64,000 nucleotides of DNA from a virus: IMG/VR virus record IMGVR_UViG_3300045988_164340, positions 128,001 through 192,000 of that record. One strand, given 5' to 3'. This document shows positions 12,555 through 32,224 of this stretch, piece after piece (within the stretch, counting starts at the first letter, position 1; each line of letters starts with the position of its first letter). Below the pieces are notes generated by a model. It ran no database searches and was not told the origin of the DNA. It was given only the letters and a program-made list of their open reading frames with translations. A program made the position numbers and the translations under genes.

Positions 12555-12560
12555 ACACAC

Positions 12561-12801
12561 AGAGTTAAGAGACCCGTAACCTCTCAACTCTGTGTATTAT
12601 GTTTTAGTTTCCTTATAGCTCAAGGAAACCAGTTAACACTATTACATAGTAATAAATGTTAAATTTGTAGTTTATTTGTTTTATTTTCTACATGGTCTTT
12701 CATCTCCTTTCTTCCTTAAGACAAGGGTTTCATTTATATGAACAGTTTACGGGGCTGGAGTTTTAGATAGGAACAGGGTCACTCCTGTTCCTTTTCTTTT
12801 T
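12561..12801 (+). ncRNA. predicted ~240-nt antisense RNA A
   Basis: start inferred ~7 nt after -10; 5' stem-loop; ends at AGGAACAGG/CCTGTTCCT stem plus TTTTCTTTTT. Confidence 0.4.
12613..12693 (-). CDS. micro-ORF A: M(TAG)KIKQINYKFNIYYYVIVLTGFLEL
   Basis: AAAGGAG SD 10 nt upstream; second codon TAG; homologous to micro-ORF B1. Confidence 0.55.
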
Positions 12802-13255
12802 CTTCGTAAGGCTTAAGAGGAATATGATTGCAAGTGGAATATTCGCCTGTGTTAATATTCATCAAGAAATCTTGACCACTTTTGTAACAAAGAAACTTGA
12901 TTTCATCTCCAAAATCATCCACTTCATATACACTCTTATCTCCACAATAAGGACAGCGAGGCTCACGATACTGGCCAAAGCGAATATCTTTCTGATACTC
13001 TTCAGACTGAGGTTTACTCCAAACCTTGACAGAGAAAGTATTACCAGATTTATCATCAGGGTCAATCTCTGCCATGCAAATATCCTGTTCCACATCCTGT
13101 CCATCACGAACAAAGACAATGTTTACACCATGATACCCTTCTTCCTGTTCATAATAGATTCTGAACTGACCATTGGGAGTATCGACAGAGACGTAAGGAT
13201 AGGAATTATTCTTTGCAGAGTGGATAATCATTTCGTTAAAATTCTTGTTAGACAT
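12779..13255 (-). CDS. hypothetical protein with CxxC pair
   Basis: 158-aa ORF with SD; CPYCGDKS. Confidence 0.7.
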   Translation of the reverse strand: MSNKNFNEMIIHSAKNNSYPYVSVDTPNGQFRIYYEQEEGYHGVNIVFVRDGQDVEQDICMAEIDPDDKSGNTFSVKVWSKPQSEEYQKDIRFGQYREPRCPYCGDKSVYEVDDFGDEIKFLCYKSGQDFLMNINTGEYSTCNHIPLKPYEEKEKEQE

Positions 13256-13292
13256 AGTTTTCTTTCCTTTCTTAAATCAAAAATGTTTGTAG

Positions 13293-13835
13293 TTACCAGC
13301 CGTAAACATTGCGAACTTGCTTACCAATAGCGCGGGTATACTTGGTAATATCCTTGGAAGTTGCTTTACCACGATATAGCTTCCAACAGAACTTGTCAAG
13401 CTGGTCAGAAGAGATTTCAGGTTTCACCTCCCTATATAAAATATAATTAGTGCCATCATGGTGAGTTTGCTTAGAGCGAAGATTGTTATGAGAATCAACC
13501 CACCATTCTCCATAACCACAATCAGCATCAAACGAAAGACAAGCTCTGATATTCTTTTCATCTTTAAGCTTGTAGCCTGTTCTTCTACCGTTCCATAAAC
13601 CCAAATCAACGATGGCAATAATACGTCCTTCGGTGGGGATATTAAGATTAGCCTGTTCATCGTGAAAATATTCAGAGCTCAAAAGATACATTTCTTCAAT
13701 GTAATCATCTTCGGTTTTAGTGGAAGAGTCAATTTCATTCATCTCCCACATCTCTTCAATACCTTCACGCCAGTCTTCAAGATTGAGGTCGTAGTTGCTC
13801 CAAATGATGTGCTTGTTAGGGTTCTTCTTAGCCAT
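13293..13835 (-). CDS. hypothetical protein
   Basis: start moved to ATG 13835 (MAKKNPNKHIIW) with GAAAGGA SD. Confidence 0.7.
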   Translation of the reverse strand: MAKKNPNKHIIWSNYDLNLEDWREGIEEMWEMNEIDSSTKTEDDYIEEMYLLSSEYFHDEQANLNIPTEGRIIAIVDLGLWNGRRTGYKLKDEKNIRACLSFDADCGYGEWWVDSHNNLRSKQTHHDGTNYILYREVKPEISSDQLDKFCWKLYRGKATSKDITKYTRAIGKQVRNVYGW

Positions 13836-13881
13836 AATCACAATTCCTTTCTTTTTTGCTATAATTAGAATGCTTTGATAT

Positions 13882-13908
13882 AGAAAAAGCTGGGGATTAT
13901 TCCCCAGC
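13882..13908 (-). terminator. intrinsic terminator
   Basis: GCTGGGGA-ataa-TCCCCAGC then TTTTTC in - sense; overlaps the stop of 13897..14451. Confidence 0.6.
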
Positions 13909-14451
13909 AAATCCTTTGAAAGTTTCAACAATCTTGTTCTTTTCTTCAATGACCCTCTTAGTTGTACTTTTGATGCTGTAAATAAGATTATCCCTCAATG
14001 TAGAATAGATTCCATATTCATCCCATTTAGCAAGCCAACCATCTTTGTCTTTAAGCAGAGAATCAGGACAACACTCAGGAGAAGCATCAAGCACAACAGA
14101 ATCGCAAACATAATTACCATTTCTCCAAGTGATATAATAACGACTACCTTGTTTGTTAACTGCGATACTTTCATCATTACCATAATCTCTATAATAATGA
14201 GCATGAAGATTTGTTCTTGAAAAGAGATTAACTTCTTCAGCGATTTTCACCAAAGAAAGAATTTGGTTAACAATCACAGTCCACTTAGCTCTACCGATTG
14301 CTTCTGTACGAGGGATATAATATTCCTTTGTAGCTTCACAAAGAGTTTTGGCATTCTGATAACGCTGAAGAAGTTCCAGCATTTCGGTGTCTTCGTTTTC
14401 CTTGCAAGTAACGGTAACGGTCATGTTTTCATAAGTCTTAGTGTTAGTCAT
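13897..14451 (-). CDS. hypothetical protein
   Basis: 184-aa ORF with SD. Confidence 0.7.
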   Translation of the reverse strand: MTNTKTYENMTVTVTCKENEDTEMLELLQRYQNAKTLCEATKEYYIPRTEAIGRAKWTVIVNQILSLVKIAEEVNLFSRTNLHAHYYRDYGNDESIAVNKQGSRYYITWRNGNYVCDSVVLDASPECCPDSLLKDKDGWLAKWDEYGIYSTLRDNLIYSIKSTTKRVIEEKNKIVETFKGFAGE

Positions 14452-14519
14452 AATATAAACCTTTCTCCCCGTATAGCCGTTGGGACAGCTTAATTTTATT
14501 ATTTTCCTTAAAATAAAGA

Positions 14520-14720
14520 TTAACCGATGATAGAAAGAATTGTGTTATAGATATTTTCTGTGTCTAAATCAGAGTCGTTTGACGGATAAGCATTACAAAT
14601 AGCATCTTTTTCTGTAATAGTTAGCTCATCCCACTTCTTGTTGAAAGGATAGTTCAAAGAAGTTTCTTCTTCAAAAATCATATAATCTTTTACAGCTTGT
14701 TAAATTTCTTTTTTGTTCAT
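14520..14720 (-). CDS. small protein interrupted by an in-frame TAA at codon 7
   Basis: AAGGAG SD 8 nt before ATG 14720; MNKKEI-TAA(14700-14702)-QAVKDYMIFEEE...; ATG 14681 has no SD. Confidence 0.4.
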
Positions 14721-14786
14721 TTTTATATCTCCTTCAAGTTATTTGGTAAGGGTGGAAGATTTGCTTCCACCCATATACCTTAGATA

Positions 14787-16409
14787 TTAGTCACGAGGAG
14801 TAACACGAACTTTGAGCTTGTTTTTCTTGGCATACTCACAAATAGCTTTGTACTCATCCTCAGTGATACTACGGTTGGAAGCTCCTCTTGCCTGAACAAT
14901 AGCTTCGTTTTCAAGCTCAATAGTAACCAAAGGCTTATCAGTATCTTTTGTCTTACGAAGGAAAACAATCAGGCAATTTCTCTTGATTATTTTGCTCAGG
15001 TAACTGTACACACAATGATTCAACGCAGAACCTTCGTGCTTGACATCATCTGCATTCTTAGGACGAACAATACTGTATGTCTTATCCTCCGTGACAAAAG
15101 ACTTGAAATCTTTGTAAGCATTTTCAAACATCTCAGCCTGTTCCTCAGTAAGCTTAACTTCATAGTTGCGAGAAGTGATATCATGAGTCTGCTTAAGGTA
15201 AGAACTATAAAGAGTAGGCTTGATATCCATTGAAACGCACATATCAAGATAGTCACGAAGTTCACCCATAAACGAGTTTAAAGTTTTAAAGCCTTGATTG
15301 ACAGCCTCTTCACAAACATAATCCATAAACTTACCAAAAGTGTAGAACTGATAAAATTTGGAATTTCTATAATAATTATTATTCCTAAGATAAGCCTGTA
15401 AAGTGCTAGAAAAAACTTTCCCACCATATCCGCCAATTTCAACATGATTGAATTCAAATTCTTCATCCCAATACTTTGCTTTTTCAATAATGTCAAACCA
15501 TTCCTGATTGGTGTAATGACAGAAATCTTCTAAAGTCATGTTGCCATTATTACCGTAGTAGTAATTTTTACTATCCTCTTTAAAAGCGGAAGTGACAATG
15601 TTTTGTAAATTCATCCAATCATCAAGGATATTTCTATCATTAGCTTCTTTATACTCTGCTTTGGTAAGATGAATAAGTTTATAAACAGGTTCAGCGGTTT
15701 CAACTTTAAAACTAAGAAGAGCATTTTGAATGGATTTAGGAGCAGTGCGAAAGATGATTTCAGTGGATTTGTTTCTGCTTAATGCGAATCTCAATTCTCT
15801 GAAAGTATATTTAACCCCGATATTTTCGATAGGAATATCCCAGACTTGAGAGATAAAATCAATTGCGCTATCTCCCATTCCAGCTTCATAAACAGGGCCA
15901 TCACCATCACTGACTGGGGTAGCATTAGGCTCAAGGATAGGAATTAACTGTTCACCATTCATAATAAAGTTGCAACAGGCGTTATTGGTGGCAATTCTAT
16001 ATCTGTAATGACGAGATACAATAGCACCAAGAGGGAAACAATAACCAACATTGACCCAGAAATCACCGCCTTTCAAATTTACTTCCTTAATGATAAAAGT
16101 ATTAGGCGTAAGATAATCACGACTGGTAGGAGCACCAGTGAGCAAATCGAAATACAGCTCGACATCAGAACGGTTCGAACTATAGTGAACAATGATTTTC
16201 TTTCCATGAGAAGTAAAATCGCTGTTGTAACGATTGTTCTGAACCTTAGTCATTTCAACTCTTGCTTCTTTGAGTTGGTCAGAGAGATGTTTGATACGAG
16301 CATTGATTTCCTTTTCTTTAGCGGAGACTTCGTAGTTCTTAAAGAAGCTTTCATAATCATGAGTGGTAGACTTGTAGAAGTTAGCGATAGCAGTGTTAGA
16401 CATAATCAA
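14787..16409 (-). CDS. PcfJ-like protein
   Basis: 540 aa; C-terminal HEGSALNHCVYSYLSKIIKRNCLIVFLRK matches the PcfJ core and the paralog 21788..24115. Confidence 0.7.
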   Translation of the reverse strand: MIMSNTAIANFYKSTTHDYESFFKNYEVSAKEKEINARIKHLSDQLKEARVEMTKVQNNRYNSDFTSHGKKIIVHYSSNRSDVELYFDLLTGAPTSRDYLTPNTFIIKEVNLKGGDFWVNVGYCFPLGAIVSRHYRYRIATNNACCNFIMNGEQLIPILEPNATPVSDGDGPVYEAGMGDSAIDFISQVWDIPIENIGVKYTFRELRFALSRNKSTEIIFRTAPKSIQNALLSFKVETAEPVYKLIHLTKAEYKEANDRNILDDWMNLQNIVTSAFKEDSKNYYYGNNGNMTLEDFCHYTNQEWFDIIEKAKYWDEEFEFNHVEIGGYGGKVFSSTLQAYLRNNNYYRNSKFYQFYTFGKFMDYVCEEAVNQGFKTLNSFMGELRDYLDMCVSMDIKPTLYSSYLKQTHDITSRNYEVKLTEEQAEMFENAYKDFKSFVTEDKTYSIVRPKNADDVKHEGSALNHCVYSYLSKIIKRNCLIVFLRKTKDTDKPLVTIELENEAIVQARGASNRSITEDEYKAICEYAKKNKLKVRVTPRD

Positions 16410-16468
16410 TTTTCCTTTCTTAATTAGACGAAATGTTTGTAGTGACTATATATTAAAGGGAGGAGGGA

Positions 16469-17155
16469 TTAACCCTCCATCACCTTTTTACAGAAAGCTT
16501 TGTATTTCTGACTATTGAGTACACCAAGAATTTTTTCTTTAGCTTCGGGCTTACTCTTATAGTAGTCAGAGTAGTAGTCAGAGTTATAACCAAAATGTCT
16601 CTGATAAATGATATCAGGATTTTTCTTAAGCAACGCTTCAAGAGGACAATAAAGGCTTACAGTAACCTCTTCGCCCTTGTACTTGTAAGGCATCTTGATG
16701 TAGATATCGCAAGAGCCAGAACCACAAGTAGGAACATAAGCATCAAACTTATATTTTTTCAGATAAGGATAAGCCATGAGAATTGCTTCATTGAAAACTT
16801 TTCGAAGATAGACACTCTGATAATCACGAGAAACAATATACTGGTAAGCATCTTCGTAATGGTCTCTTTTCCAACCATTACGTTCTTTTGTGAATCTAAA
16901 ATTTCTCTTGATTTCAGGGAGACGTGTGTAATGGGCTTCATAGTAGCTAACACTATTTGTAGACACAGGAATATACTTGATACCACAGATATCTTTCATC
17001 TTGATTTTCTCATTTACAAGCCAAAGAAGGACATGAGTTGGGAAACACTTTTCCCACACATCCCATTCTTTGATGAACTTTTTAGCTCTTTCGTAGCCGA
17101 CAAATTTCTCGTTGAGATAAGTACCCTGATACTGAGCATAGATAGCCATAGTCAT
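16469..17155 (-). CDS. hypothetical protein
   Basis: 228-aa ORF with SD. Confidence 0.7.
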   Translation of the reverse strand: MTMAIYAQYQGTYLNEKFVGYERAKKFIKEWDVWEKCFPTHVLLWLVNEKIKMKDICGIKYIPVSTNSVSYYEAHYTRLPEIKRNFRFTKERNGWKRDHYEDAYQYIVSRDYQSVYLRKVFNEAILMAYPYLKKYKFDAYVPTCGSGSCDIYIKMPYKYKGEEVTVSLYCPLEALLKKNPDIIYQRHFGYNSDYYSDYYKSKPEAKEKILGVLNSQKYKAFCKKVMEG

Positions 17156-17215
17156 AATTCCTTTCTTTTCAATAGATGTGTTGTTGTTTATGTTGTTGTT
17201 TATATTTAAGTAGAG

Positions 17216-17464
17216 TTATTTCTCTACATCAAAGATAACATGAGCACCAGCGATTTTTGTGCGACTTGGAAGCTTATAAAGCTCAGTAATTAAGTTTGTA
17301 TCTCTAGGCTTAAAATGAGGCATAAACGCAAAGTAAAACACTTTGCTATCAAGAGCTTTGTTTTTATAATCGAAACGAGTAACAATAAATAAATAATATA
17401 CTTTGTTACTTTCCGAGTCTGTAGAAATTCCTTCAAAAGTGATAGTAAAATTACCGATAACCAT
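17216..17464 (-). CDS. hypothetical protein
   Basis: 82-aa ORF. Confidence 0.6.
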   Translation of the reverse strand: MVIGNFTITFEGISTDSESNKVYYLFIVTRFDYKNKALDSKVFYFAFMPHFKPRDTNLITELYKLPSRTKIAGAHVIFDVEK

Positions 17465-17477
17465 GTTATTCTCCTTT

Positions 17478-17675
17478 TTAATAAGTTGGATTAGTTTTAG
17501 AAAGTTCCCATGGTTCTTTTTTCAACAGCGCATGGGCTTCTTCATAAGCAGTAAAGAATTCTTGGTCAGTTTTGTAATCATCCATGCTATGAACAAGTTC
17601 TCTGATATAGTCATCCATGAGGGGAATAGATGCTTCAAAATTAACCAGAGTTCCACTGAGATTTTTTACTAACAT
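17478..17675 (-). CDS. hypothetical protein
   Basis: start moved to ATG 17675 (GGAGG SD). Confidence 0.6.
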   Translation of the reverse strand: MLVKNLSGTLVNFEASIPLMDDYIRELVHSMDDYKTDQEFFTAYEEAHALLKKEPWELSKTNPTY

Positions 17676-17689
17676 ATTTTTACCTCCTT

Positions 17690-17884
17690 TCAAACATCTA
17701 TGGCAAAATTAGCCACACAGAATCCATATTCTTCTTCAAGTCTTTCACAAATAGAGTCTTCCATATCTCTTAAAAAACTGGTACAAAGGTCATCGTACTC
17801 AAGGTCAACTTCAGAGGGAAGGCTTTCACTGGGGACATCGTTTTCATCAATGTCCCATTCAATATTGGTAACGTGAACAATCAT
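17690..17884 (-). CDS. small highly acidic protein
   Basis: 64 aa rich in D/E. Confidence 0.6.
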   Translation of the reverse strand: MIVHVTNIEWDIDENDVPSESLPSEVDLEYDDLCTSFLRDMEDSICERLEEEYGFCVANFAIDV

Positions 17885-17911
17885 ACTTAATCTCCTTTTG
17901 TTTTAATTTAA

Positions 17912-17937
17912 GGGAGAGAGATATTTCACTCTCTCCC
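17912..17937 (-). promoter_or_regulatory. intergenic hairpin with 8-nt loop UGAAAUAU (- sense)
   Basis: GGGAGAGAG / CTCTCTCCC stem, + strand loop ATATTTCA. Confidence 0.6.
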
Positions 17938-17962
17938 ATGTTGATGTGTTGAACAGTTGACG

Positions 17963-18454
17963 TTAAATCGAGGGCTGACCGAGCCATTCAATATTGTCTG
18001 CCTTGATAGTCATACAGCCAGTCTCATTGGAAGATGTGAAATAACTATCAGGAACAAAGCCAGTCTTGCGAAGGTCTTCCTTGGAAATTTGCTTTCCATT
18101 TAAATAGTGCTGCACGCGAGGCTTATTGGGAGTGTCATACACACGGAGGTACTCATTGTATTCGCCCTTCTTATTAGTGTGGCAGATGATGCGATTGCTA
18201 CCATCCTTCCACTGACCCCAAGGGAGCTTAGAAGCGGTATCAATAGGAACATTCTTCTCAGCAGCCTTTGCAATTGCCTTCTTGGTGTGCTTGTAGTTGA
18301 CACCGATACGGTAAGTACCGATAACACGCTTAAGAACAGAGACACCAGCTTTACGACCGAGGGCAGAGAGAGTCACATCGGAAACGTAAGCCATTTTGAA
18401 GAACTGACCAGCGGGGATGGAGTTGACCTTGAGGTTGAAATAAGTGTTATTCAT
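17963..18454 (-). CDS. hypothetical protein
   Basis: 163-aa ORF with SD. Confidence 0.7.
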   Translation of the reverse strand: MNNTYFNLKVNSIPAGQFFKMAYVSDVTLSALGRKAGVSVLKRVIGTYRIGVNYKHTKKAIAKAAEKNVPIDTASKLPWGQWKDGSNRIICHTNKKGEYNEYLRVYDTPNKPRVQHYLNGKQISKEDLRKTGFVPDSYFTSSNETGCMTIKADNIEWLGQPSI

Positions 18455-18534
18455 GATATTTCCTTTCTGCCCGTAAACCCGATAGCACAGGATAATAAAT
18501 TGGTTTGTGATAAAAGAGTTATATAGATTCGGGA

Positions 18535-18834
18535 TTAAATTTCGACTTCGATGATTTTACTATCCCAGTTATCATGGTTTAGAGTAGTACCATAAGCCAA
18601 AAGACTTTCGATATCCACCATGTTCTCATCATCCATGAGCTCAAGCTCTTCAAGAATAGACAAAGCTTCTTTTAAAGTTTTCTCATCAATGACAAGAGGA
18701 ACAATATCAATGCCAATGTCTCTGACTGTGCAGAAATCATTAACCATGTGGTAAATGGCTTTTTCCTTCTTATCAAAGAAAGTAGGTTCGTTAATTTCAC
18801 GTTCACAAACGTCAATGTACATGTATTTCTTCAT
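18535..18834 (-). CDS. small acidic protein
   Basis: 99-aa ORF. Confidence 0.65.
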   Translation of the reverse strand: MKKYMYIDVCEREINEPTFFDKKEKAIYHMVNDFCTVRDIGIDIVPLVIDEKTLKEALSILEELELMDDENMVDIESLLAYGTTLNHDNWDSKIIEVEI

Positions 18835-18836
18835 GC

Positions 18837-18986
18837 TTATTCTCCTTTAATCACATTTACGAGCAGATGATAAATCATTTCATCCGCAGCTTCGGCATCC
18901 TGCATCATAACAGTTACTTCGTCAAAAGCAACATCGTTAATCACTCTGAATGTGGCTCTATCCTTATTCTGGATAATTGTAATCAT
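18837..18986 (-). CDS. hypothetical 49-aa protein
   Basis: AAGGAGG SD; MITIIQNKDRATFRV...; below the ORF-track cutoff. Confidence 0.5.
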   Translation of the reverse strand: MITIIQNKDRATFRVINDVAFDEVTVMMQDAEAADEMIYHLLVNVIKGE

Positions 18987-18999
18987 TTATTTCACCTCC

Positions 19000-19332
19000 T
19001 TAGAAATCAAGTGTGATATATTCAGAACAATGAAATGCTCTGTCAAGATTATTGCAGATAGATTTGAGAAGATTGGCTCTCTTTCTCTGTTTATCAGCAA
19101 TTTCTTCATAGAAGAGCGATTCTTCCTGTGTGCTACTACCCAATGCCCAAAGATGATTATTGCGTGCATCCAGAAGAAGCTCTTCAATTTTGTTCTGCAA
19201 TGCACGATAAACAAGAGTTGCTTCCTCAAGAGAATCAAACTCAAGGATAGCTTTCCAACTGTCATGGCTTGCTTTCTTAATCATGTGTTCGTCAATGATA
19301 TTGGTAATGGGCTTGTAAGCGATAGTGTTCAT
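19000..19332 (-). CDS. hypothetical protein
   Basis: 110-aa ORF. Confidence 0.65.
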   Translation of the reverse strand: MNTIAYKPITNIIDEHMIKKASHDSWKAILEFDSLEEATLVYRALQNKIEELLLDARNNHLWALGSSTQEESLFYEEIADKQRKRANLLKSICNNLDRAFHCSEYITLDF

Positions 19333-19388
19333 AGTTAAATTCCTTTCTTAATTAGACATGTTGTTTGTAGGTATTATGTGAGTGTGGA

Positions 19389-21169: not shown

Positions 21170-21198
21170 TTGACAAGATTTATGTTGTGTATTAATAT
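21170..21198 (+). promoter_or_regulatory. antisense-oriented sigmaA-type promoter (cassette B)
   Basis: TTGACA, 17 nt, TAATAT. Confidence 0.65.
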
Positions 21199-21267
21199 AT
21201 GTATAGATGATAAGAAGAATCCTATACTTCTTACTTACCATCTATACATCTTCGTAATTAACGGCTA

Positions 21268-21339
21268 TTAATTACGGTTATAGATTATCATAATCTACGA
21301 GAGATTATAATAGTAACTTACAAAGAAGATTCTCTACAT
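21268..21339 (-). CDS. micro-ORF B2: M(TAG)RIFFVSYYYNLS(TAG)IMIIYNRN
   Basis: AAAGGAG SD 9 nt upstream; C-terminus IIYNRN shared with C and D. Confidence 0.5.
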
Positions 21340-21458
21340 GGCTTTCAACTCCTTTCCTCCTTAGACAAGGGGCAATTATATAACAGTTTATAGGAACTGG
21401 TTATATCGAGCTAAAGAGAATTGCCTATACAATCCTCTTTAGGAATTAATTTAAGTTA

Positions 21459-21539
21459 TTAAAGTTCGTACATCCGGCCAAGAATGATAGAACAATAATA
21501 AACATTAAACTAATAGTTTATTTGTTTGATTGTCTACAT
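21459..21539 (-). CDS. micro-ORF B1: M(TAG)TIKQINY(TAG)FNVYYCSIILGRMYEL
   Basis: AAAGGAG SD 7 nt upstream; aligns with micro-ORF A. Confidence 0.55.
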
Positions 21540-21615
21540 AGACATTCTCCTTTCCATTTAGCGTTAATATATAAACAGTTTATAGGAACTGAATATATCA
21601 AAATAGAGCAGGATT

Positions 21616-21795
21616 TTATTCCTGCTCTTTTTGTATTGTGTACAAATACTGCTTTCGCTTTTCTTTGTACTGTTTGTTAATTTTGTACCGATAACTGCCA
21701 TGAGTCTTACGCTGAATTCCTTCACAGCGGTCATAGTACATACCATCGTACTGGGGATACTCTGTGATAGCATTGTTAGGTGTACGTTTAGACAT
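21616..21795 (-). CDS. small basic protein
   Basis: start moved to ATG 21795 overlapping the upstream stop (ATGTCTAA); MSKRTPNNAITEYPQYDG... Confidence 0.5.
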   Translation of the reverse strand: MSKRTPNNAITEYPQYDGMYYDRCEGIQRKTHGSYRYKINKQYKEKRKQYLYTIQKEQE

Positions 21796-25122: not shown

Positions 25123-25190
25123 AGTTTGGCTCCTTTCCGTTTTAACGTCTTGAACGTGACGTAAATTTATTGAGCTTAAAGGCTCATTGA

Positions 25191-25218: not shown

Positions 25219-25228
25219 CTATCAACCT

Positions 25229-25435: not shown

Positions 25436-25450
25436 GTTAATTGTCCTCCT

Positions 25451-25630: not shown

Positions 25631-25677
25631 AATATTACATTTCCTTTCTTTATTGAGATACAAGATATATTTTAACC

Positions 25678-26004
25678 TTAGAAGTTAACAGCAGGGAAAG
25701 TGAGCAGAAACATATTCCAACAATCCCAATTCTTATCAAGTTCTTTCAAGAGATACGAAGGAGAAATTCTCCAATCAGGATATGAAGGAATACCTTTATC
25801 TTCCAATTGGTCAACAAGTTTAATCCTGTTAAGAGTAAGAAATTCTTTTAACTTTTTCCTGTCGATTTTGTTGAATCCATCTTTTTGAATACATACAGCC
25901 CACATAATATTTTCCAAAACTGTTTTGTCATTAGAAGAATAAACAGGGTAGAAATTGACCCCATCATGGGCAATGAGGACATAATTGTAAGTCCGATTAA
26001 TCAT
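25678..26004 (-). CDS. hypothetical protein
   Basis: 108-aa ORF. Confidence 0.65.
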   Translation of the reverse strand: MINRTYNYVLIAHDGVNFYPVYSSNDKTVLENIMWAVCIQKDGFNKIDRKKLKEFLTLNRIKLVDQLEDKGIPSYPDWRISPSYLLKELDKNWDCWNMFLLTFPAVNF

Positions 26005-26006
26005 GA

Positions 26007-26165
26007 TTAAAAATCCTCCTCTTCCTGAGCAACATCAGCTTCAAAGTCATCAGACCAAGTAATATCTTCTTTGCCATAGTCCTTGACCTTAGCAAGAGCC
26101 TCAGATTCAGAATTAGCTTCAACTTCAACGGAGCCATAACGAATGAACAGAACATTGTATTTCAT
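26007..26165 (-). CDS. small acidic 52-aa protein
   Basis: MKYNVLFIRYGSVEVEANSE...QEEEDF; SD GAAAGGAAAG. Confidence 0.5.
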   Translation of the reverse strand: MKYNVLFIRYGSVEVEANSESEALAKVKDYGKEDITWSDDFEADVAQEEEDF

Positions 26166-26223
26166 ATTATACTTTCCTTTCTTAATGGTGTCAAGTATTT
26201 AAAAAGAAATTTTTACAAACTAC

Positions 26224-26252
26224 TTGACAAGTGTTATCATTTGTGTTATATT
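26224..26252 (+). promoter_or_regulatory. antisense-oriented sigmaA-type promoter (cassette C)
   Basis: TTGACA, 17 nt, TATATT with TGt. Confidence 0.7.
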
Positions 26253-26258
26253 ACACTC

Positions 26259-26489
26259 ATCAAGCAAAGTAGCCTGTAACTTTTACTTGATGAGTGTTGT
26301 TGATTATCATCTTTGGTTAGTTACGATGATAAATGATACGAATAATTGAGATTTGTCTATCCATATCAACATGTAAAATTTTCTACATATTAATTTCTCC
26401 TTTCGTGAGTAGTTATGTAAACAGACTTTACAGGAGTCTGGAGTCTTAAGTAAGACTGGTAGTTGGTAGCTACCAGTCTTTTCTCTTTT
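26259..26489 (+). ncRNA. predicted ~230-nt antisense RNA C
   Basis: 12-bp 5' stem-loop; ends at AAGACTGGTA/TACCAGTCTT plus TTCTCTTTT. Confidence 0.4.
26317..26388 (-). CDS. micro-ORF C: M(TAG)KILHVDMDRQISIIRIIYHRN
   Basis: AAAGGAG SD 8 nt upstream. Confidence 0.5.
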
Positions 26490-27420
26490 ACTTCTTGTAA
26501 ACCATGTAGGTAAGAAGATAATCACGAATCTTTTCAGCAGGATGACCTTCGTGTTCTTCAATCTTGTCCTGAGCAACACGAACAAACTCATCACAGCTCT
26601 TGTACTGCTTAAGATTCAACAGAAAATAGTTGAATGCCTTGGTATCTTCACAGTGCTTGTAGCAAGCAGAAATTCCTGCTAACATGCGCTGAGTATAAAC
26701 CATATCATCCTTCCAACCAGTCCCCTGAAGAACAGCGAACACAAAACGAAGAGCGTTTTCACCGTCACGTTTAACAATACGATACAGCTCTTCAACTGCA
26801 TTGATGTTATTATAACGATTGATGGTGCTATTGCGATTGGTCTTAACAGTCAGACCAAATTCCTTTGTGACCTGATTGATAATCACTGCTGTGGGCTTCT
26901 TGGCGCAAAGTTCAGCTTTATATCTTTCGTAGCCACGAAGATTAGTTTTACCTTCATTCTGGCTAGCAAACAAATCTGCTTCTTCTTCCAGAGTAAGGTT
27001 GATAAATACTTTGCAAGTGATAGCATAGATGGGGAAGCCTTTACTCTGCATATAAAGCAGAGCACTCAAGGTATGAGCACCATCCATCAAGAAGAGATGC
27101 CAAGTATTACCAACCTTGCGAATAGAAGCTGCTTTAATTTCAACCTTGTTGATATTGAAGTTATTGGTAATTTTAGCTACTTCATAGTTTTTGGGTTCGC
27201 GCTGATAGTGCAAGTCGATTTCAGGCATAAAAAGAGGAATGTCTCTAATTGCCCAGTTACGACCATCCTCTCTCTTTTCAATCTCCCTTTCCACAGAGAG
27301 CTTGAAGGCATAAACGGACTTGGACTGCTCGTTAGTGATTGCCTTGGGCTTAAGTGCATCGAGCAGGACTTCGCTGACGGACTTTTCGTTCTTAATGTTG
27401 GTGAGATTAATCTTCTTCAT
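26488..27420 (-). CDS. ParB/Srx-fold (DGQHR-like) domain protein
   Basis: 310 aa; WHLFLMDGAHTLSAL resembles the DGQHR/ParB-N motif. Confidence 0.55.
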   Translation of the reverse strand: MKKINLTNIKNEKSVSEVLLDALKPKAITNEQSKSVYAFKLSVEREIEKREDGRNWAIRDIPLFMPEIDLHYQREPKNYEVAKITNNFNINKVEIKAASIRKVGNTWHLFLMDGAHTLSALLYMQSKGFPIYAITCKVFINLTLEEEADLFASQNEGKTNLRGYERYKAELCAKKPTAVIINQVTKEFGLTVKTNRNSTINRYNNINAVEELYRIVKRDGENALRFVFAVLQGTGWKDDMVYTQRMLAGISACYKHCEDTKAFNYFLLNLKQYKSCDEFVRVAQDKIEEHEGHPAEKIRDYLLTYMVYKK

Positions 27421-27465
27421 AATTCTAAATTCCTTTCATAACTCAAAAAAGTTTGTAATTATTAC

Positions 27466-27494
27466 TTGACAGATATTATCAAGTGTGCTAAGAT
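27466..27494 (+). promoter_or_regulatory. antisense-oriented sigmaA-type promoter (cassette D)
   Basis: TTGACA, 17 nt, TAAGAT. Confidence 0.6.
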
Positions 27495-27545
27495 AAACAC
27501 AAGTAGAAAGCCTACACTCTCTACTTGTGACGCAATTAAGTGGGA

Positions 27546-27617
27546 TTAATTACGATTGTAAATGATAAAGACTATTATTATGGACCAATAATAGTCAACT
27601 GCTAAGATTTTCTACAT
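27546..27617 (-). CDS. micro-ORF D: M(TAG)KILAVDYYWSIIIVFIIYNRN
   Basis: AAAGGAG SD 7 nt upstream. Confidence 0.5.
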
Positions 27618-27744
27618 AGCAAAGCTCCTTTCTAATTTAATAATACATTAATTCATTGTAGGCTGAATTAATGTGCGAGTGAATAAGTTGGGCTTAAACA
27701 CTCTATTGAGGGATGGAAGTTATTTTCCATCCCTCTAACAATGT

Positions 27745-27939
27745 TTAAACTTTTTCAACTTTGTATGGCCTGCAAGTAACAATATCGAAATTGTTTACAA
27801 GCCATTCAGGTTTGGTTTTTTTAGTATTGAGGAATTTGCAAACAATGTTTGCAAGCACTTCACTGTTAAATACAGTTTTTTCCTTCATACTCATTGTGAC
27901 TGTTACGGATTTTCCGTATTTGTTTACAATCTTAAACAT
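27745..27939 (-). CDS. hypothetical 64-aa protein
   Basis: start moved to ATG 27939 overlapping the upstream stop (ATGTTTAA). Confidence 0.55.
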   Translation of the reverse strand: MFKIVNKYGKSVTVTMSMKEKTVFNSEVLANIVCKFLNTKKTKPEWLVNNFDIVTCRPYKVEKV

Positions 27940-28246
27940 GCCACACCTCCGTTTTAACACCTTTGCCATTGTAATAACGACGAGCACCATAATTGGCTCT
28001 ATCACTAAAACATTCAGCACAAGGAATTAATTCCTTACGCTTTCCCTCTTTGATTTCCTTGAGTGAAAGGTTGAAGCACTGCTCAACCTCGCATTTTTCA
28101 CACGTCTTACAGGATTTACCCTTGCAGATATTTTCGCAGAAGTTGTTTTTAACTTTGCAGAGATGCTTAACACCCCAAGAGGAATTCATCTCAGCTAAAG
28201 TCTGGTCGAGAGTGTAATTACGACCCATAACACTAATCTTTTTCAT
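27932..28246 (-). CDS. Cys-rich protein
   Basis: 104 aa; CKVKNNFCENICKGKSCKTCEKCEVEQC. Confidence 0.65.
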   Translation of the reverse strand: MKKISVMGRNYTLDQTLAEMNSSWGVKHLCKVKNNFCENICKGKSCKTCEKCEVEQCFNLSLKEIKEGKRKELIPCAECFSDRANYGARRYYNGKGVKTEVWHV

Positions 28247-28309
28247 TTTACTTTGACTCCTTTCAAGTCTGTATTAAATTTGATTTTGAATTTGTCTTAA
28301 ACTATATGG

Positions 28310-28642
28310 TTAAAAACAAACACGTTTCTTTTTGATTTTGGTAAGCATCCAACACCAAGGATTTCCAAAATCATCTTCAAGAGGAGTAACCTTAATGGTT
28401 ACAAGCACCTCAGTACTGAGATGTTCAAGCACATATTCGAGATTTTTAAGAGAGAAAACATATCTCTCTTTTGTATCATCTTTGGTACTTTTTGCGCACC
28501 ATTTGATGATTTCTTTCAAACTTGAATCAATCAAGCAGTTCAAATTCCCATACGTATCAAGCGCTCTACTAAGAGAAGGCGCTTCTAAATAAGTAGGGTT
28601 GTTTGTAATGGAGCGAATATTGTTTTTCATTTTCTTAGACAT
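28310..28642 (-). CDS. hypothetical protein, paralog of 6896..7216
   Basis: 110 aa; see 6896..7216. Confidence 0.65.
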   Translation of the reverse strand: MSKKMKNNIRSITNNPTYLEAPSLSRALDTYGNLNCLIDSSLKEIIKWCAKSTKDDTKERYVFSLKNLEYVLEHLSTEVLVTIKVTPLEDDFGNPWCWMLTKIKKKRVCF

Positions 28643-28679
28643 GACTTTAATTCCTTTCTTTTGTCAAATTGATTAATAC

Positions 28680-28871
28680 TTATACTTGCTTGAGATATTT
28701 AAGGTTTAACTCTAATTTGGAATCCATGATTAAACCCTTTTCTCTTTTGATGCGACCTCTGAGATTATTCAGCGCTTGTTTCTCAGAAGAGGCCATTGTG
28801 TAACCAGAATAATGACAATAATAGTCATGCCATCTGGTTACTGGGCCCTCATAATAATATTTGAGCTTCAT
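28680..28871 (-). CDS. hypothetical protein
   Basis: 63-aa ORF with GGAGG SD. Confidence 0.6.
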   Translation of the reverse strand: MKLKYYYEGPVTRWHDYYCHYSGYTMASSEKQALNNLRGRIKREKGLIMDSKLELNLKYLKQV

Positions 28872-28888
28872 ATATACCTCCTTTCAAC

Positions 28889-29134
28889 TCAAATAAACTC
28901 TGAGACTTTACCCTCTTCATGGACATAGCCTCCAAGAACTTCAGGACATGACTGGAAATAACCAGACGCATCCTGAATGTGTACGAGAATGGTATCATCC
29001 ATATTCAATGAGCCATTTCGTACTTTCATTCTGAGAGAATTGCGAATTCGTTTCCAAATTTCGCTTCTTTCTTCGAATACATCATAGATGACTTTGCCAT
29101 CTTTTTTGATGTATCCTTTGTACCATCTTGTCAT
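28889..29134 (-). CDS. hypothetical protein
   Basis: 81-aa ORF, ATGA overlap with upstream gene. Confidence 0.6.
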   Translation of the reverse strand: MTRWYKGYIKKDGKVIYDVFEERSEIWKRIRNSLRMKVRNGSLNMDDTILVHIQDASGYFQSCPEVLGGYVHEEGKVSEFI

Positions 29135-29595
29135 TTGTTTTCACCCCCTTTCTCATGATTCAGGGCAGCTCTTCTTAATTCATCCTGAGAATTATAATAC
29201 TGCTCAAAAGCATCACAACCTTCCCAAGAAATTTTAGATTGAAGCTTTGCAAGCTTTTCAGAGACTTCTGCCAAGTTTTTTTGTGCCTCTTCAAGAGCAG
29301 ATTCCTGTAATGCAATATATGTATCCATTGCAACATTCTTTGCCATAAGAATGGCAGTGAATTCATCTTTGAAGTAACCTTCATAATGTTGAGGCATAAT
29401 ATGTGTTTTCATTTCATTAAAGGTGCTTTCGCGGATGAATTGTTCTCTCAATTCGCCTGAAGCTAGAAAATATACAGGATTTTCATTAGTATTATGAATA
29501 TTCTGAATTTTGTACACTACCATGGTGTTCATGGTAGTAGGCTGACGGTAAATCACGGTATATACATACCCATCTAACGTTGTAATCTTTTTCAT
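29131..29595 (-). CDS. hypothetical protein
   Basis: start moved to ATG 29595 (MKKITTLDGYVY) with GAAAGGAAAAAAG SD. Confidence 0.65.
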   Translation of the reverse strand: MKKITTLDGYVYTVIYRQPTTMNTMVVYKIQNIHNTNENPVYFLASGELREQFIRESTFNEMKTHIMPQHYEGYFKDEFTAILMAKNVAMDTYIALQESALEEAQKNLAEVSEKLAKLQSKISWEGCDAFEQYYNSQDELRRAALNHEKGGENK

Positions 29596-29623
29596 TTCTT
29601 TTTTCCTTTCTGCTCTTTTGAGC

Positions 29624-29652
29624 TTGACAAATCTTTGTTTGTGTGTTATACT
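29624..29652 (+). promoter_or_regulatory. antisense-oriented sigmaA-type promoter (cassette E)
   Basis: TTGACA, 17 nt, TATACT with TGt. Confidence 0.7.
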
Positions 29653-29705
29653 TGCTATTGTAATAAGAAAAGTGGTTGACCAATCCACTCTTCTTATTAA
29701 ATTGA

Positions 29706-29861
29706 TTAGTCTAAGTCTAACTTAGATATATCTATCTGGAAGAATTCAATCAGCTATTCAACACTTAGGTGTTGCATATACCAATTAAACTCAAATTCAG
29801 AAGTGATATACTACTTCAGAATAGAACCAATCTTTGCTTTATTACTAAAACTATCCTACAT
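29706..29861 (-). CDS. micro-ORF E (51 aa, three TAG codons): M(TAG)DSFSNKAKIGSILK(TAG)YITSEFEFNWYMQHLSVE(TAG)LIEFFQIDISKLDLD
   Basis: AAAGGAGG SD 5 nt upstream; GTTTTAGTAATAAAGCA shared with cassette H. Confidence 0.4.
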
Positions 29862-30003
29862 GAATTCCTCCTTTCTTTTAACTTGTTAGTGCTGGTGACT
29901 AACTTGTTATTCATTATCTTATTGGTCAGATAAGATAGAGAGCTTATTCCCATTAAGCACTCTATGAAGGGTAGGAGCATATGTTCCTGCCCTTTAACAA
30001 TGC

Positions 30004-30339
30004 TTAACCGATGTAACGTTCCTTGAGAGAACGTGCTTCCATAATGAAAGATTCAAAATCTTCGTTGGAAGTAATTTGTATTCTTTTTTCTTTGATTGGT
30101 CTAGCTATCATATTAAGTTTAGATAGTGTGTATTCACAATACAACTTTATATAATAAGTTGTGTTGTTTTCATTTAACACTCTATCAGGAGAGACATATA
30201 CGTGAAGCCAATAATCTTTCCCAAAGTGTGACTGAGCAAATGCTCCTCTATCTTCCCACTGAGCGAATACTTCAGTATCTTCCCAAGGTTTTGCAATACC
30301 AACTAACATATTGCAGATATCATGGACGGCTAATTTCAT
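30004..30339 (-). CDS. hypothetical protein
   Basis: 111-aa ORF with SD. Confidence 0.65.
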   Translation of the reverse strand: MKLAVHDICNMLVGIAKPWEDTEVFAQWEDRGAFAQSHFGKDYWLHVYVSPDRVLNENNTTYYIKLYCEYTLSKLNMIARPIKEKRIQITSNEDFESFIMEARSLKERYIG

Positions 30340-30366
30340 TTTCTTTGATTCCTTTCTATTAAACCA

Positions 30367-30395
30367 TTGACAAGTACAACTTTATATGTTATACT
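30367..30395 (+). promoter_or_regulatory. antisense-oriented sigmaA-type promoter (cassette F)
   Basis: TTGACA, 17 nt, TATACT with TGt. Confidence 0.7.
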
Positions 30396-30454
30396 TATTA
30401 TTAGAATAAGAGAAGTGCCTACACACCTCTCTTATTAATGAGCTTTTATTCTTC

Positions 30455-30529
30455 TTAGAAGTTATAGTTCTTTAGAATTACAACTACAACGACGTTTAAA
30501 GAATAATCGACTGAAATAATCTTCTTCAT
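30455..30529 (-). CDS. micro-ORF F: MKKIISVDYSLNVVVVVILKNYNF
   Basis: AAGGAGG SD 9 nt upstream; second codon AAG where G1/G2 have TAG. Confidence 0.55.
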   Translation of the reverse strand: MKKIISVDYSLNVVVVVILKNYNF

Positions 30530-30660
30530 TATTTATTACCTCCTTAAGAAGATAAAAGCAAACAAGAATGTAGGTCCTTATTTACTACAGAGGAGAGATA
30601 GGGGGATATCTCTCCTTCTGTTATGTTTGAGTAGTTTAACGACTTGCTCAGGTCGAGGAG

Positions 30661-31062
30661 TTAGTTCTGATAATCGTCACTTACCAGAACCCATTCTTCT
30701 CCATTACCATCAATGAGATGAATTGTTGTTCCATCTTCACCGATAGTAACTGACTGAAGATTACTAAACCAATTTTCAGTAGTGGTATAGGCTTCTTCAG
30801 TGCCTTTGTCGTAACCAGCGTTGTATGCGCCAGTTACGTCTTCATTAGTGCAGACCTCTGCGGGAGTGCTCTTACTGTAATCAATGTTACAGATAAGAGT
30901 AATGATGCTAATGGCAAGAATAGTCATGATAATGAACATGGCACGAGGATTCATGCTCTTCTTATGCACGATTGCTTCGATATTAATGATAACACCGTAT
31001 ACAATCATGATAATCATGATAGCCACGGCAATGATAACAATAGAATTCATGGTAATAAACAT
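30661..31062 (-). CDS. membrane protein
   Basis: 133 aa; two N-terminal TM helices. Confidence 0.65.
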   Translation of the reverse strand: MFITMNSIVIIAVAIMIIMIVYGVIINIEAIVHKKSMNPRAMFIIMTILAISIITLICNIDYSKSTPAEVCTNEDVTGAYNAGYDKGTEEAYTTTENWFSNLQSVTIGEDGTTIHLIDGNGEEWVLVSDDYQN

Positions 31063-31095
31063 CTTTATTTCCTTTCTGGTTTTAGTGTCTTTTCC

Positions 31096-31124
31096 TTGAC
31101 AATAGTTGTTTGGTGTGTTATAAT
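31096..31124 (+). promoter_or_regulatory. antisense-oriented sigmaA-type promoter (cassette G)
   Basis: TTGACA, 17 nt, TATAAT with TGt (full consensus). Confidence 0.75.
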
Positions 31125-31183
31125 GTTTTTAATAAGAGAAGCACCTATATACTTCTCTTATCTGTGTATCTTATTACACTTTA

Positions 31184-31258
31184 TTAGAAGTTGTAATTCT
31201 TAAGGATGATTACTACAACCACATTAAAAGTGTAATTGACAAATGTTATCTTCTACAT
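31184..31258 (-). CDS. micro-ORF G1: M(TAG)KITFVNYTFNVVVVIILKNYNF
   Basis: AAAGGAGG SD 8 nt upstream; codon-by-codon check done. Confidence 0.6.
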
Positions 31259-31395
31259 TTATTTACCTCCTTTAGAAGATAGAAGTATTTAATTGTATAG
31301 GCAACTAAATACTGAGAGCTTATTGCGACTAAGCACTCTATAAGATAGAGGAAGATATTTCTACCTTCCTCTATCCTAACAATGCTCAGTTATGC

Positions 31396-31470
31396 TCAGA
31401 AGTTATAATTCTTCAGTATCGCAACTGTTACAACATTAAGAGCATAATTTACGGAAATTATTTTCTACAT
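31396..31470 (-). CDS. micro-ORF G2: M(TAG)KIISVNYALNVVTVAILKNYNF
   Basis: AAAGGAGG SD 9 nt upstream; TGA stop. Confidence 0.6.
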
Positions 31471-31614
31471 GGTAATTTCCTCCTTTCCGAGTGCGATTTG
31501 GATTACTAAGCACTCTATTAAGCCCAGTATCAACTCCTTTTGGGGCGGATATTGGGCTTTAACAATGCTTAGGTATTGAGCAGTTTATTGTCATACTCAG
31601 GACAAAAGAGTGGA

Positions 31615-31956
31615 TTAGTTCTTAATCATCCACCCTTCACAACCGTATTTCTCATGGACAATCTTTCTGTTCCAGCAGTAATTTGTGCTGCCACCATCAG
31701 ACTGAGGAAAAGTGATACAAGTTTTCTGCATTAAAGTAAGAATGCCCTTCCATGCATCTTCGGTTTCTTCATTGAAAATCTCATTGAAAACGGTTTCCAG
31801 TGCTCTCCACTGGAGGAAAATTGCTCCCTGATAGCGGAAACGGTCGTAGACCTTTACAAAGGTCTCCGTGAAGGACGGGGTATTGAAGCTGTCTACTAAC
31901 TTGTCCAACCATTTATTGTTGTTGCTGATAGTAATGTTGATGTTGTTGATATACAT
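31615..31956 (-). CDS. hypothetical protein
   Basis: start moved to ATG 31956 (MYINNINITIS) with AAAGGAG SD. Confidence 0.65.
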   Translation of the reverse strand: MYINNINITISNNNKWLDKLVDSFNTPSFTETFVKVYDRFRYQGAIFLQWRALETVFNEIFNEETEDAWKGILTLMQKTCITFPQSDGGSTNYCWNRKIVHEKYGCEGWMIKN

Positions 31957-31996
31957 AGCTTTGACTCCTTTTTGTTCCTTTCTTTTAGAAAATCTG

Positions 31997-32025
31997 TTGA
32001 CAAATATAACTTTATATGTTATACT
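31997..32025 (+). promoter_or_regulatory. antisense-oriented sigmaA-type promoter (cassette H)
   Basis: TTGACA, 17 nt, TATACT with TGt. Confidence 0.7.
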
Positions 32026-32083
32026 GTCATTGTAGTAAGAAAGATGCCTATACATCTTTCTTACTGGTGATGTGTATAAATTA

Positions 32084-32161
32084 TTAACTTATACGTTGTG
32101 ATGCTTTATTACTAAAACAACAATCACGCAAAGAAAATAATTTACTTCTATCAATCTTCAT
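32084..32161 (-). CDS. micro-ORF H: MKIDRSKLFSLRDCCFSNKASQRIS
   Basis: AGGAGG SD 7 nt upstream; no TAG; divergent peptide. Confidence 0.4.
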   Translation of the reverse strand: MKIDRSKLFSLRDCCFSNKASQRIS

Positions 32162-32224
32162 TATTTTACCTCCTGAAGATTGATAGAAGTACTTATCAAT
32201 ATAGGTTAATAAGTACTACAAAAT

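Follow-up and report, generated by a model that had tools for sequence, protein, structure and literature searches.

In the hok mRNA a 3′-terminal element, fbi, folds back onto the 5′ end to form a linear helix, from which it is released by 3′ processing, and translation of an overlapping leader open reading frame (ORF), mok, is the target of the antisense RNA. Here we describe ten small intergenic cassettes on the minus strand of a 64,000-nucleotide stretch of viral DNA (IMG/VR record IMGVR_UViG_3300045988_164340, positions 128,001 to 192,000; hereafter the window, in whose numbering all positions are given). The cassettes resemble type I toxin-antitoxin systems such as hok/Sok and Helicobacter aapA1/IsoA1 in having a small ORF, a strong Shine-Dalgarno (SD) sequence and a cis-encoded antisense RNA, predicted in this case, with a strong promoter. 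They are also alike in that structured 5′ and 3′ elements would be in contact across the ORF, with the element on the 3′ side mattering for antisense recognition. Long-distance interactions between 5′ and 3′ regions are key determinants in type I toxin mRNAs (PMC8594479). Unlike in hok/Sok and aapA1/IsoA1, the contact proposed here is a loop-loop kiss of 6–8 bp and not a linear helix that joins the two termini, the predicted antisense RNA runs across the whole cassette, and TAG stands at codon 2 of the ORF in a code-switching phage.

The kissing complexes of ColE1 RNA I/RNA II, R1 CopA/CopT and TAR-TAR* provide a second comparison, as in these systems too hairpin loops of 6–9 nt pair over all or most of their bases, and the loop of the antisense 5′ hairpin is complementary to a loop of the target, as would be the case here. 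The kisses of these systems are intermolecular and their complementarity follows trivially from transcript overlap, whereas the informative complementarity in the cassettes joins two hairpins of one strand and would not last without selection. Read by eye, the loops of the window cassettes contain no YUNR U-turn motif. A third comparison is with human-gut phages that recode TAG. Several such clades have been described, with a model in which early genes are kept in the host code and recoded genes come later, in a paper where neither toxins nor antisense RNAs nor small ORFs are mentioned (the words 'toxin' and 'antisense' each occur 0 times; 10.1101/2021.08.26.457843). The phage studied here is like these code 15 recoding timers (crAss-like, Lak and 'gemstone' clades) in that in-frame TAG codons are restricted to late or structural genes. 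It is unlike published recoding in that TAG also stands at codon 2 of small ORFs in an otherwise TAG-free early region, which would make them start-stop units until suppression. In the literature searched we found neither a long-range closure by kissing loops, as proposed here, nor an amber codon 2 in a code-switching phage.

All ten cassettes (A, B2, B1, C, D, E, F, G1, G2 and H) share one plan. Read in the sense (minus-strand) direction, it consists of a terminator hairpin that serves chiefly the plus strand, an upstream hairpin (the U hairpin), a strong SD with the ATG-TAG that leads into an open frame and, past this frame, a strong downstream hairpin (the D hairpin) and a backward-facing promoter. 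The original prediction, made from the window sequence, held that in every cassette except G2 the loops of these two hairpins can pair. All nine matched pairs were found on the minus strand at the positions it gave, with 6–8 nt of perfect complementarity, and G2 indeed has no complementary loop pair. A match length of 6 nt is correct for B2, B1, F, G1 and H, while in A, C, D and E the match extends over 7–8 nt. The two loops lie 140–167 nt apart (236 nt in E). Five different loop alleles coexist in this one genome, where CCUAUA/UAUAGG is common to four cassettes (B2, B1, G1 and H) and cassettes D and F have a common core. We thus found in nine cassettes what characterizes a kissing loop, namely pairs of hairpins with loops of about 6–9 nt that are Watson-Crick complementary over at least 5 nt.

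In order to compare these cassettes with relatives we used two neighbouring proteins as queries, which gave 18 close loci on IMG/VR contigs of 108–220 kb. Two distant loci, L019 and L020, in which the neighbouring protein is 57% and 43% identical, had no recognisable cassettes. A DNA pattern composed of SD-ATG-TAG and conserved codons matched 31 IMG/VR loci and 88 metagenome loci, with many human-gut assemblies among them, and its matches were from this phage clade only; it replaced a first pattern (AAGGAG...ATGTAGAARATH) for which the matches listed were mostly due to chance. After deduplication, the window, IMG/VR and the gut metagenomes together provided 213 distinct cassettes with 121 distinct peptides. 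The loop allele of cassette E stems from the first cassette set and is absent from the set of 213 owing to an ORF-length filter.

For each cassette the D hairpin was located by folding, and its loop extended by 2 nt on either side was compared with the 83 nt located 5′ of the SD. In 173 of the 213 cassettes the two had a perfect reverse-complement match of at least 6 nt. Control comparisons gave matches of this length in 13 cassettes when the loop was taken in the same sense, in 3 when it was reversed and in 24 when it was complemented without reversal, which bears out the claim that the complementarity exceeds chance. The matched upstream segment was flanked by at least 4 stem pairs in 93% of cases compared with 34% at random positions.

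Overall there are about ten loop alleles. These include CCUAUA/UAUAGG, CCUACA/UGUAGG (with extensions to 7–8 nt), CCUGUA(A)/UUACAGG and CCCGUAA/UUACGGG, and further (A/U)CCCGUAU, CCCACA/UGUGGG, ACCGUG/CACGGU, UCCGUG/CACGGA, ACCUGUAU and UGACCAAU/AUUGGUCA. Covariation was assessed in an ungapped alignment (A1) of 91 rows in which both loop regions were joined by an artificial unpaired spacer. Over the six kissing pairs 98.7% of cells form standard pairs, and five of the six pairs have changed on both sides. The alignment contains 100 double-changed cells compared with 31.4 ± 3.7 after shuffling, a number that was reached in 0 of 500 shuffles, and when the partner was slid by 1–3 columns only 20–53% of cells remained paired. 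Covariation of the loops between cassettes, which had been proposed from the window alone, is thus upheld in an alignment that includes homologs. Within the CC-Y-R-Y-R group the alleles differ by transitions (C/U, A/G) at loop positions 3–6, which is the pattern expected from evolution via G·U intermediates; an exception is the first base (A, U or C) of the KNRN alleles. Because complementarity has been maintained by compensatory change, the conservation of Watson-Crick pairing over 6–8 nt between the two loops indicates, from comparative sequence data, an RNA-RNA kissing helix. We consider it highly probable that the loops pair with each other as RNA.

Secondary-structure programs cannot model a kissing helix. 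With folding energies of −15 to −22 kcal/mol the D hairpins are strong, and the U hairpins, folded between the ends originally proposed, are weaker (0 to −10.6 kcal/mol). When whole transcripts of the nine window cassettes were folded, both hairpins were present in the minimum free energy structure in eight of nine. The mean unpaired probability of the loops in these folds was 0.73–1.0 for the U loops and 0.51–0.99 for the D loops, and as they are mostly unpaired the loops appear free for tertiary contact. Two upstream stems need comment. The F stem does contain G·U pairs as predicted, but the short stem given for it is wrong, the actual structure being a 12-bp stem at 30586–30557 with −9.8 kcal/mol. 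The A stem was correctly described as weak in the window, where a C·A mismatch breaks it, but relatives keep a 4-bp CAGC/GCUG stem. A linear end-to-end helix of the hok type is not conserved among the cassettes, which have a loop-loop contact of internal hairpins instead; a long-range helix of ~15 bp in which the 5′ untranslated region pairs with the region of the stop codon, with the ORF enclosed between them, was predicted by folding in cassette F and also in some relatives, and in these only. Likewise, no overlapping leader ORF comparable to mok is conserved, and the SD spacing indicates ATG-TAG as the start. In F, G1 and H (30455–30560, 31240–31285 and 32140–32190, minus strand) a segment AUCUUCU... 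located 5′ of the SD pairs with codons 2–5, which places the SD and AUG in a hairpin loop.

A complementarity present in one strand is also present in the other, and we therefore looked for features of the stems that distinguish the two. In the sense reading, the D stems contain 180 G·U pairs compared with 14 A·C, and the U stems 92 compared with 31. The minus strand is rich in A and G alike, so that we would not expect composition to favour G·U over A·C. In 66 of 66 cassettes the D hairpin is steadier in the sense reading, with means of −20.1 kcal/mol (sense) and −14.4 kcal/mol (antisense). Single-step loop variants that keep a wobble pair in the sense reading are found in L206 (CCUGCA/UGUAGG), L223 (GCCUGCA/UGUAGGC) and L180 (UCUAUA/UAUAGG). 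Assignment of the structures to the mRNA sense, as in the original prediction, thus agrees with both the G·U asymmetry of the two stems and the greater stability of the D hairpins. Because G·U far exceeds A·C in both stems, the hairpins appear to have been selected in minus-strand RNA, and of the two RNAs the data favour the sense RNA as the target of selection.

Just beyond the D hairpin the plus strand carries a consensus promoter, TTGACA-17-TAnAAT with a TG extension. Such a promoter is located within ~35 nt of the D hairpin in 162 of the 213 cassettes, 157 of which have the TG extension. Plus-strand terminators beyond the U hairpin in A, B1, C, F and H delimit predicted antisense units of ~230 nt. 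The predicted antisense RNA would overlap the cassette fully and have the complement of the D hairpin at its 5′ end. Because it starts there, its 5′ loop is identical to the loop of the sense U hairpin, in accordance with a further element of the original prediction, and the antisense 5′ hairpin could compete with U for the D loop. The upstream region of the antisense promoters is A/T-rich in a manner common to plus-strand promoters at ~38730, 44200 and 58370, and because of this shared region the same polymerase probably drives both promoter sets. Beside cassette C, at 26166–26252, two consensus promoters stand back to back and diverge, one at 26194–26166 (minus strand, 12/12 match) and the other at 26224–26252 (plus strand).

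One rival explanation places the selected kiss inside the antisense RNA, whose 5′ loop would pair with the antisense copy of the U hairpin close to the 3′ end and would circularise or stabilise this molecule, not the mRNA. The predicted antisense RNA spans both hairpins where plus-strand terminators lie beyond U, an adjacent promoter is commoner among loop-matched cassettes (144 of 173) than among unmatched ones (18 of 40), and the single-step loop variant at L009 3723 keeps its wobble in the antisense reading only. This is opposed by the overwhelming location of G·U pairs on the sense strand (180:14 and 92:31), by D hairpins that are on average 5.7 kcal/mol weaker in the antisense reading and by the three single-step variants that keep their wobble in the sense reading only. 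Furthermore, 29 of the 51 cassettes that have no adjacent antisense promoter keep the loop match, in some cases over 8 bp, so that the match does not depend on the D hairpin being an antisense 5′ end. We judge a kiss within the antisense RNA to be improbable.

Two sense RNAs might instead pair with each other in trans, whether as copies of one cassette or as products of cassettes that share an allele, and this would result in dimers or networks in place of closed monomers. Cross-pairing is conceivable given that four window cassettes carry one allele and that cassettes D and F have a common core. Local concentration favours pairing in cis, and where a single cassette of the genome carries an allele, as do A, C and E in the window, it nonetheless has its own matched pair, as a partner within the cassette predicts. 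For these reasons we give trans pairing still less weight than a kiss within the antisense RNA. Pairing in cis on the sense RNA is in our estimation slightly favoured over all other arrangements taken together.

It could also be that the loops do not pair and that one protein, or RNA polymerase, recognises the same loop on the sense U hairpin and on the antisense 5′ hairpin. These two loops are identical in sequence by construction, and a CC dinucleotide is found in all alleles except that of E (UGACCAAU) and is constant in the CC-Y-R-Y-R group. The loops of each cassette nevertheless track one another exactly through five alleles in one genome and about ten in the clade, which a single protein would not demand at four variable positions, and intermediates of the wobble type suit base pairing and not sequence identity. 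Recognition by a protein therefore seems very unlikely.

At the DNA level the hairpins might be palindromic recombinase sites with a 6–8-bp core, at which inversion would flip the ORF relative to a strong outside promoter. The geometry resembles that of lox and FRT, with inverted arms of 12–16 bp, an asymmetric core of 6–8 bp and identical cores in inverted orientation, and in such sites the cores must match within a pair and may vary between pairs. We rejected this highly improbable explanation since the arms differ between U and D and among cassettes, since nearly every imperfection in the arms is a G·T on one and the same strand, as is typical of RNA that folds, and since 0 of 213 distinct cassettes are in an inverted configuration with hybrid arms. 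Least plausible of all is chance combined with shared ancestry, in which duplicates inherited complementary AT-rich loops: although the cassettes are paralogues, TATA is self-complementary and the unreversed-complement control reached 24 of 213, the non-palindromic alleles CCCGUAA, CCUGUAA, CCCACA, ACCGUG and UGACCAAU each have an exact partner, and the double changes at five of six positions already contradict it.

Several observations weigh against a kissing loop that closes the sense RNA. In several cassettes a −10-like hexamer overlaps the U loop or lies 3′ of it, so that the U hairpin might fall outside a cassette-specific mRNA, though transcripts that read through from the operon 5′ of it would still contain it. 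Alignment A1 has a register fitted to the structure, omits 35 cassettes and consists of related sequences. Allele switches occur mainly between paralogous families (ORF identity up to ~79%) and not between near-identical orthologues, and a fair estimate of the number of independent covariation events is roughly 8–10, not hundreds. Covariation furthermore fits cis and trans pairing equally well. As a plain duplex the CCUAUA/UAUAGG helix has a predicted energy of only −4.5 kcal/mol. Finally, 40 of the 213 cassettes (~19%) have no perfect match of at least 6 nt. Two whole sub-families make up much of this number, the G2 type with D loops UUAGUAG or UAGAAAUA and a U loop UUAGUAAUCCAAAUC of only partial, near-palindromic complementarity, and the L071 type (MxKITFVDYVTNVIxVRILKHRN). 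When alternative complementary loops were sought in the cassettes of both types, only partial near-palindromic matches of the UUAGUAA kind and nothing convincing were obtained. Single loop variants with true mismatches are present in L157/L228, L005 and L178.

A separate candidate, in which the U loop serves as a general −10 element (TATAAA or TACAAT in some alleles), was rejected on two grounds: CCCGUAA, CCUGUAA and CCCACA do not resemble a −10 element, and the U loops change together with the D hairpin.

Returning to closure of the sense RNA, we propose that the U and D loops, ~140–170 nt apart on one molecule, kiss and so would turn the segment with the small ORF into a closed, compact domain. 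This would be the kissing-loop counterpart of the 5′-3′ long-distance interactions of type I toxin mRNAs. The D loop would also be the first kissing site for the antisense 5′ hairpin. As the U loop and the antisense 5′ loop are identical in sequence, U may be regarded as a built-in competitor for antisense entry, which by occupying or competing for the entry site would tune antisense access, RNA stability or both. As a whole, type I toxin-antitoxin-like cassettes with a sense RNA closed by a kissing loop are the best explanation that we can offer, and our confidence in it is about evenly balanced. An inhibitory role like that of the hok fold-back, suggested by analogy, is plausible though less likely than not. 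If the proposal is true, communication of the type I style between 5′ and 3′ regions can be built from a kissing loop, and a long-range tertiary contact supported by covariation would be added to a cassette family that is absent from Rfam and Pfam.

The ORFs had originally been taken for micro-ORFs. This label has to be dropped, as the phage recodes TAG and ATG-TAG runs in frame into conserved peptides of 22–26 codons (51 in E), which alters the likely target of regulation by the RNA structure. Eight of the ten window ORFs begin with ATG-TAG (at 12693, 21339, 21539, 26388, 27617, 29861, 31258 and 31470, minus strand), and in F (30529) and H (32161) codon 2 is AAG. Among the 121 distinct peptides codon 2 is TAG in 97, Lys in 22 and Gln in 2, and 41 have further in-frame TAGs. 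Variable sites are distributed over the codon positions as 77:49:134, which is a coding substitution pattern, and TAG in the cassette ORFs exchanges chiefly with CAG/CAA, as in code 15 gut phages and consistent with TAG being read as Gln. Both features argue that the ORFs are translated past TAG, with TAG most likely decoded as Gln.

The small peptides have a hydrophobic core, for example MxKITFVNYTFNVVVVIILKNYNF (x = TAG), and thus have the character of small (<60 amino acids) hydrophobic toxin peptides. Against this, the 51-amino-acid peptide of E is not hydrophobic. The peptides had no meaningful match in Pfam, and no homology to known toxins was found there or by tblastn against phages. 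Rfam searched at the gathering threshold gave no family anywhere in the window. In both respects the cassettes are unlike described toxin and antitoxin families. Standard gene callers would miss all of these peptides. In H (32084–32161, minus strand) a 2-nt deletion after codon 2 shifts the frame relative to relatives that encode MKTIIEVNYFLCVIVVLVIKHHNV, and a TTG at 32154 is where the conserved frame is taken up again; H may be a decaying copy or a re-initiating one. An unrelated SD-ATG-TAG ORF, MxKIRYLQLDLIHRVVLFYHSRLIYTHFYRYRNQN, was present among the matches listed in many unrelated IMG/VR contigs (L034, L035, L042, L043, L048, L053, L063 and others).

Recoding of TAG is evident from the late genes. 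Genes at ~6–33 kb of the window are on the minus strand and those from ~38.8 kb onward on the plus strand, with a phage-like G+C content of ~35% overall. Under the standard code the late plus-strand ORFs (38800–64000) are broken by many in-frame TAGs (1–8 each), and they are long when TAG is read through: the ORF at 48186–50396 has 737 codons with 8 in-frame TAGs and that at 46567–48210 has 548 codons with 5. TAG seldom serves as a stop in the window, and the long minus-strand ORFs (6000–33000) have essentially no in-frame TAG. With TAG read as Gln, the plus-strand ORF at 50535–51386 contains GIY-YIG, NUMOD3 and I-HmuI-like domains that span its TAG positions, and that at 48186–50396 contains an internal LAGLIDADG domain. 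As this reading restores long plus-strand ORFs with recognisable domains, the gene sequences point to late genes in which the phage has TAG read as glutamine, in a code-15-like manner confined to one arm of the genome. A point against is that, for a genome of ~200 kb, scans of the 64-kb window and of all fetched loci for tRNAs detected none, and thus no suppressor tRNA(CUA). Megablast of the region against isolated phages and tblastn of the F peptide against phages both gave zero matches, and the best tblastn matches in phages to a neighbouring protein of 336 amino acids are ~30% identical or less. The empty megablast result and the distant protein matches argue that there is no cultured relative, and the phage belongs to a clade of TAG-recoding human-gut phages of ~200 kb that is uncultured.

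The TAG at codon 2 would gate translation separately from RNA structure, with start-stop before the switch from TAG to Gln and peptide after it. More tentatively, the code switch may act as a clock for about ten antisense-controlled peptide genes, whose closed RNAs would early in infection be held silent and partly shielded from antisense RNA and then decoded after the switch, an idea that we consider less likely even than the hok-like role. The covarying loops would in that case keep the cassette RNAs alive and silent until the switch, and the stored RNAs would afterwards yield membrane-active or otherwise host-directed peptides. Recoding as a timer has so far been argued mainly from gene content, and ORFs with TAG at codon 2 in a TAG-avoiding early region represent a small and clean reporter for recoding as an expression timer.

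The individual cassettes are located as follows, all ORFs and hairpins being on the minus strand and all antisense promoters on the plus strand. In cassette A the U hairpin, which is weak in the window, is at 12742–12757 (loop CCCGUAA, 12753–12747), the ORF at 12613–12693 (ATG-TAG and 24 codons, MxKIKQINYKFNIYYYVIVLTGFLEL) and the D hairpin at 12557–12595 (−22.3 kcal/mol; loop UUACGGG, 12579–12573). Its antisense promoter, TTGACA-17-TACAAT with a TG extension, occupies 12526–12554, and a plus-strand terminator follows at 12769–12792. B2 and B1 are in tandem between one antisense promoter at 21170–21198 and a plus-strand terminator at 21605–21628. B2 (21201–21399) has its U hairpin at 21384–21399 (loop CCUAUA, 21394–21389), its D hairpin at 21201–21247 (loop UAUAGG, 21226–21221) and an ORF at 21339–21268 encoding MxRIFFVSYYYNLSxIMIIYNRN. 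The corresponding positions in B1 (21411–21591) are 21576–21591 for U (loop CCUAUA, 21586–21581), 21411–21442 for D (loop UAUAGG, 21429–21424) and 21539–21459 for the ORF, which encodes MxTIKQINYxFNVYYCSIILGRMYEL. Cassette C extends over 26253–26440, with U at 26422–26440 (loop CCUGUAA, 26434–26428), an ORF beginning ATG-TAG at 26388–26317 and D at 26253–26297 (loop UUACAGG, 26279–26273), and lies between an antisense promoter at 26224–26252 and a plus-strand terminator at 26452–26480.

Cassette D covers 27498–27674. Its U hairpin is at 27645–27674 (loop AGCCUACA, 27664–27657), its D hairpin at 27498–27529 (loop UGUAGGCU, 27516–27509) and its antisense promoter at 27466–27494, and the ORF at 27617–27546 encodes MxKILAVDYYWSIIIVFIIYNRN. 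In E (29662–29937) the U hairpin is at 29915–29937 (loop UGACCAAU, 29928–29921) and the D hairpin at 29662–29698 (loop AUUGGUCA, 29684–29677); the 51-codon ORF at 29861–29706 contains three in-frame TAGs, and the antisense promoter is at 29624–29652. F (30405–30586) has a U hairpin at 30586–30557 (loop CCUACA, 30574–30569), a D hairpin at 30405–30436 (loop UGUAGG, 30423–30418), an antisense promoter at 30367–30395 and a plus-strand terminator at 30590–30617, and its ORF (30529–30455), in which AAG replaces TAG at codon 2, encodes MKKIISVDYSLNVVVVVILKNYNF.

The last group begins with G1 (31132–31313), where U is at 31284–31313 (loop CCUAUA, 31301–31296) and D at 31132–31161 (loop UAUAGG, 31149–31144), the antisense promoter at 31096–31124 matches the consensus at 12 of 12 positions and has the TG extension, and the ORF at 31258–31184 encodes the peptide MxKITFVNYTFNVVVVIILKNYNF cited above. 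The ORF of G2 (31396–31470) encodes MxKIISVNYALNVVTVAILKNYNF, a member of the same peptide family, in the cassette that has no complementary loop pair. H (32034–32217) comprises a U hairpin at 32188–32217 (loop CCUAUA, 32205–32200), a D hairpin at 32034–32065 (loop UAUAGG, 32052–32047) and the frameshifted ORF at 32161–32084 with AAG as codon 2, and is flanked by an antisense promoter at 31997–32025 and a plus-strand terminator at 32224–32255.

Two homing-endonuclease sequences were noted among the late genes, both readable only when TAG is taken as Gln. The LAGLIDADG homing-endonuclease domain within the 737-codon ORF is intein-like, and the GIY-YIG/NUMOD3 homing endonuclease that adjoins this ORF is free-standing. 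At 32000–40000 the window has a stretch of low GC (27–28%) that coincides with the switch of coding strand and with a reversal of GC skew. It may mark a module boundary or the origin or terminus of replication. A motif ATAGAGTG(C/T)TTA stands just 5′ of cassettes D, E, G1 and G2 (minus strand, at 27706, 29965, 30185, 31341 and 31518). It has 7 matches with at most 1 mismatch compared with 1.0 expected and makes up the 5′ arm of another hairpin, and a role as promoter or in RNA processing is conceivable.

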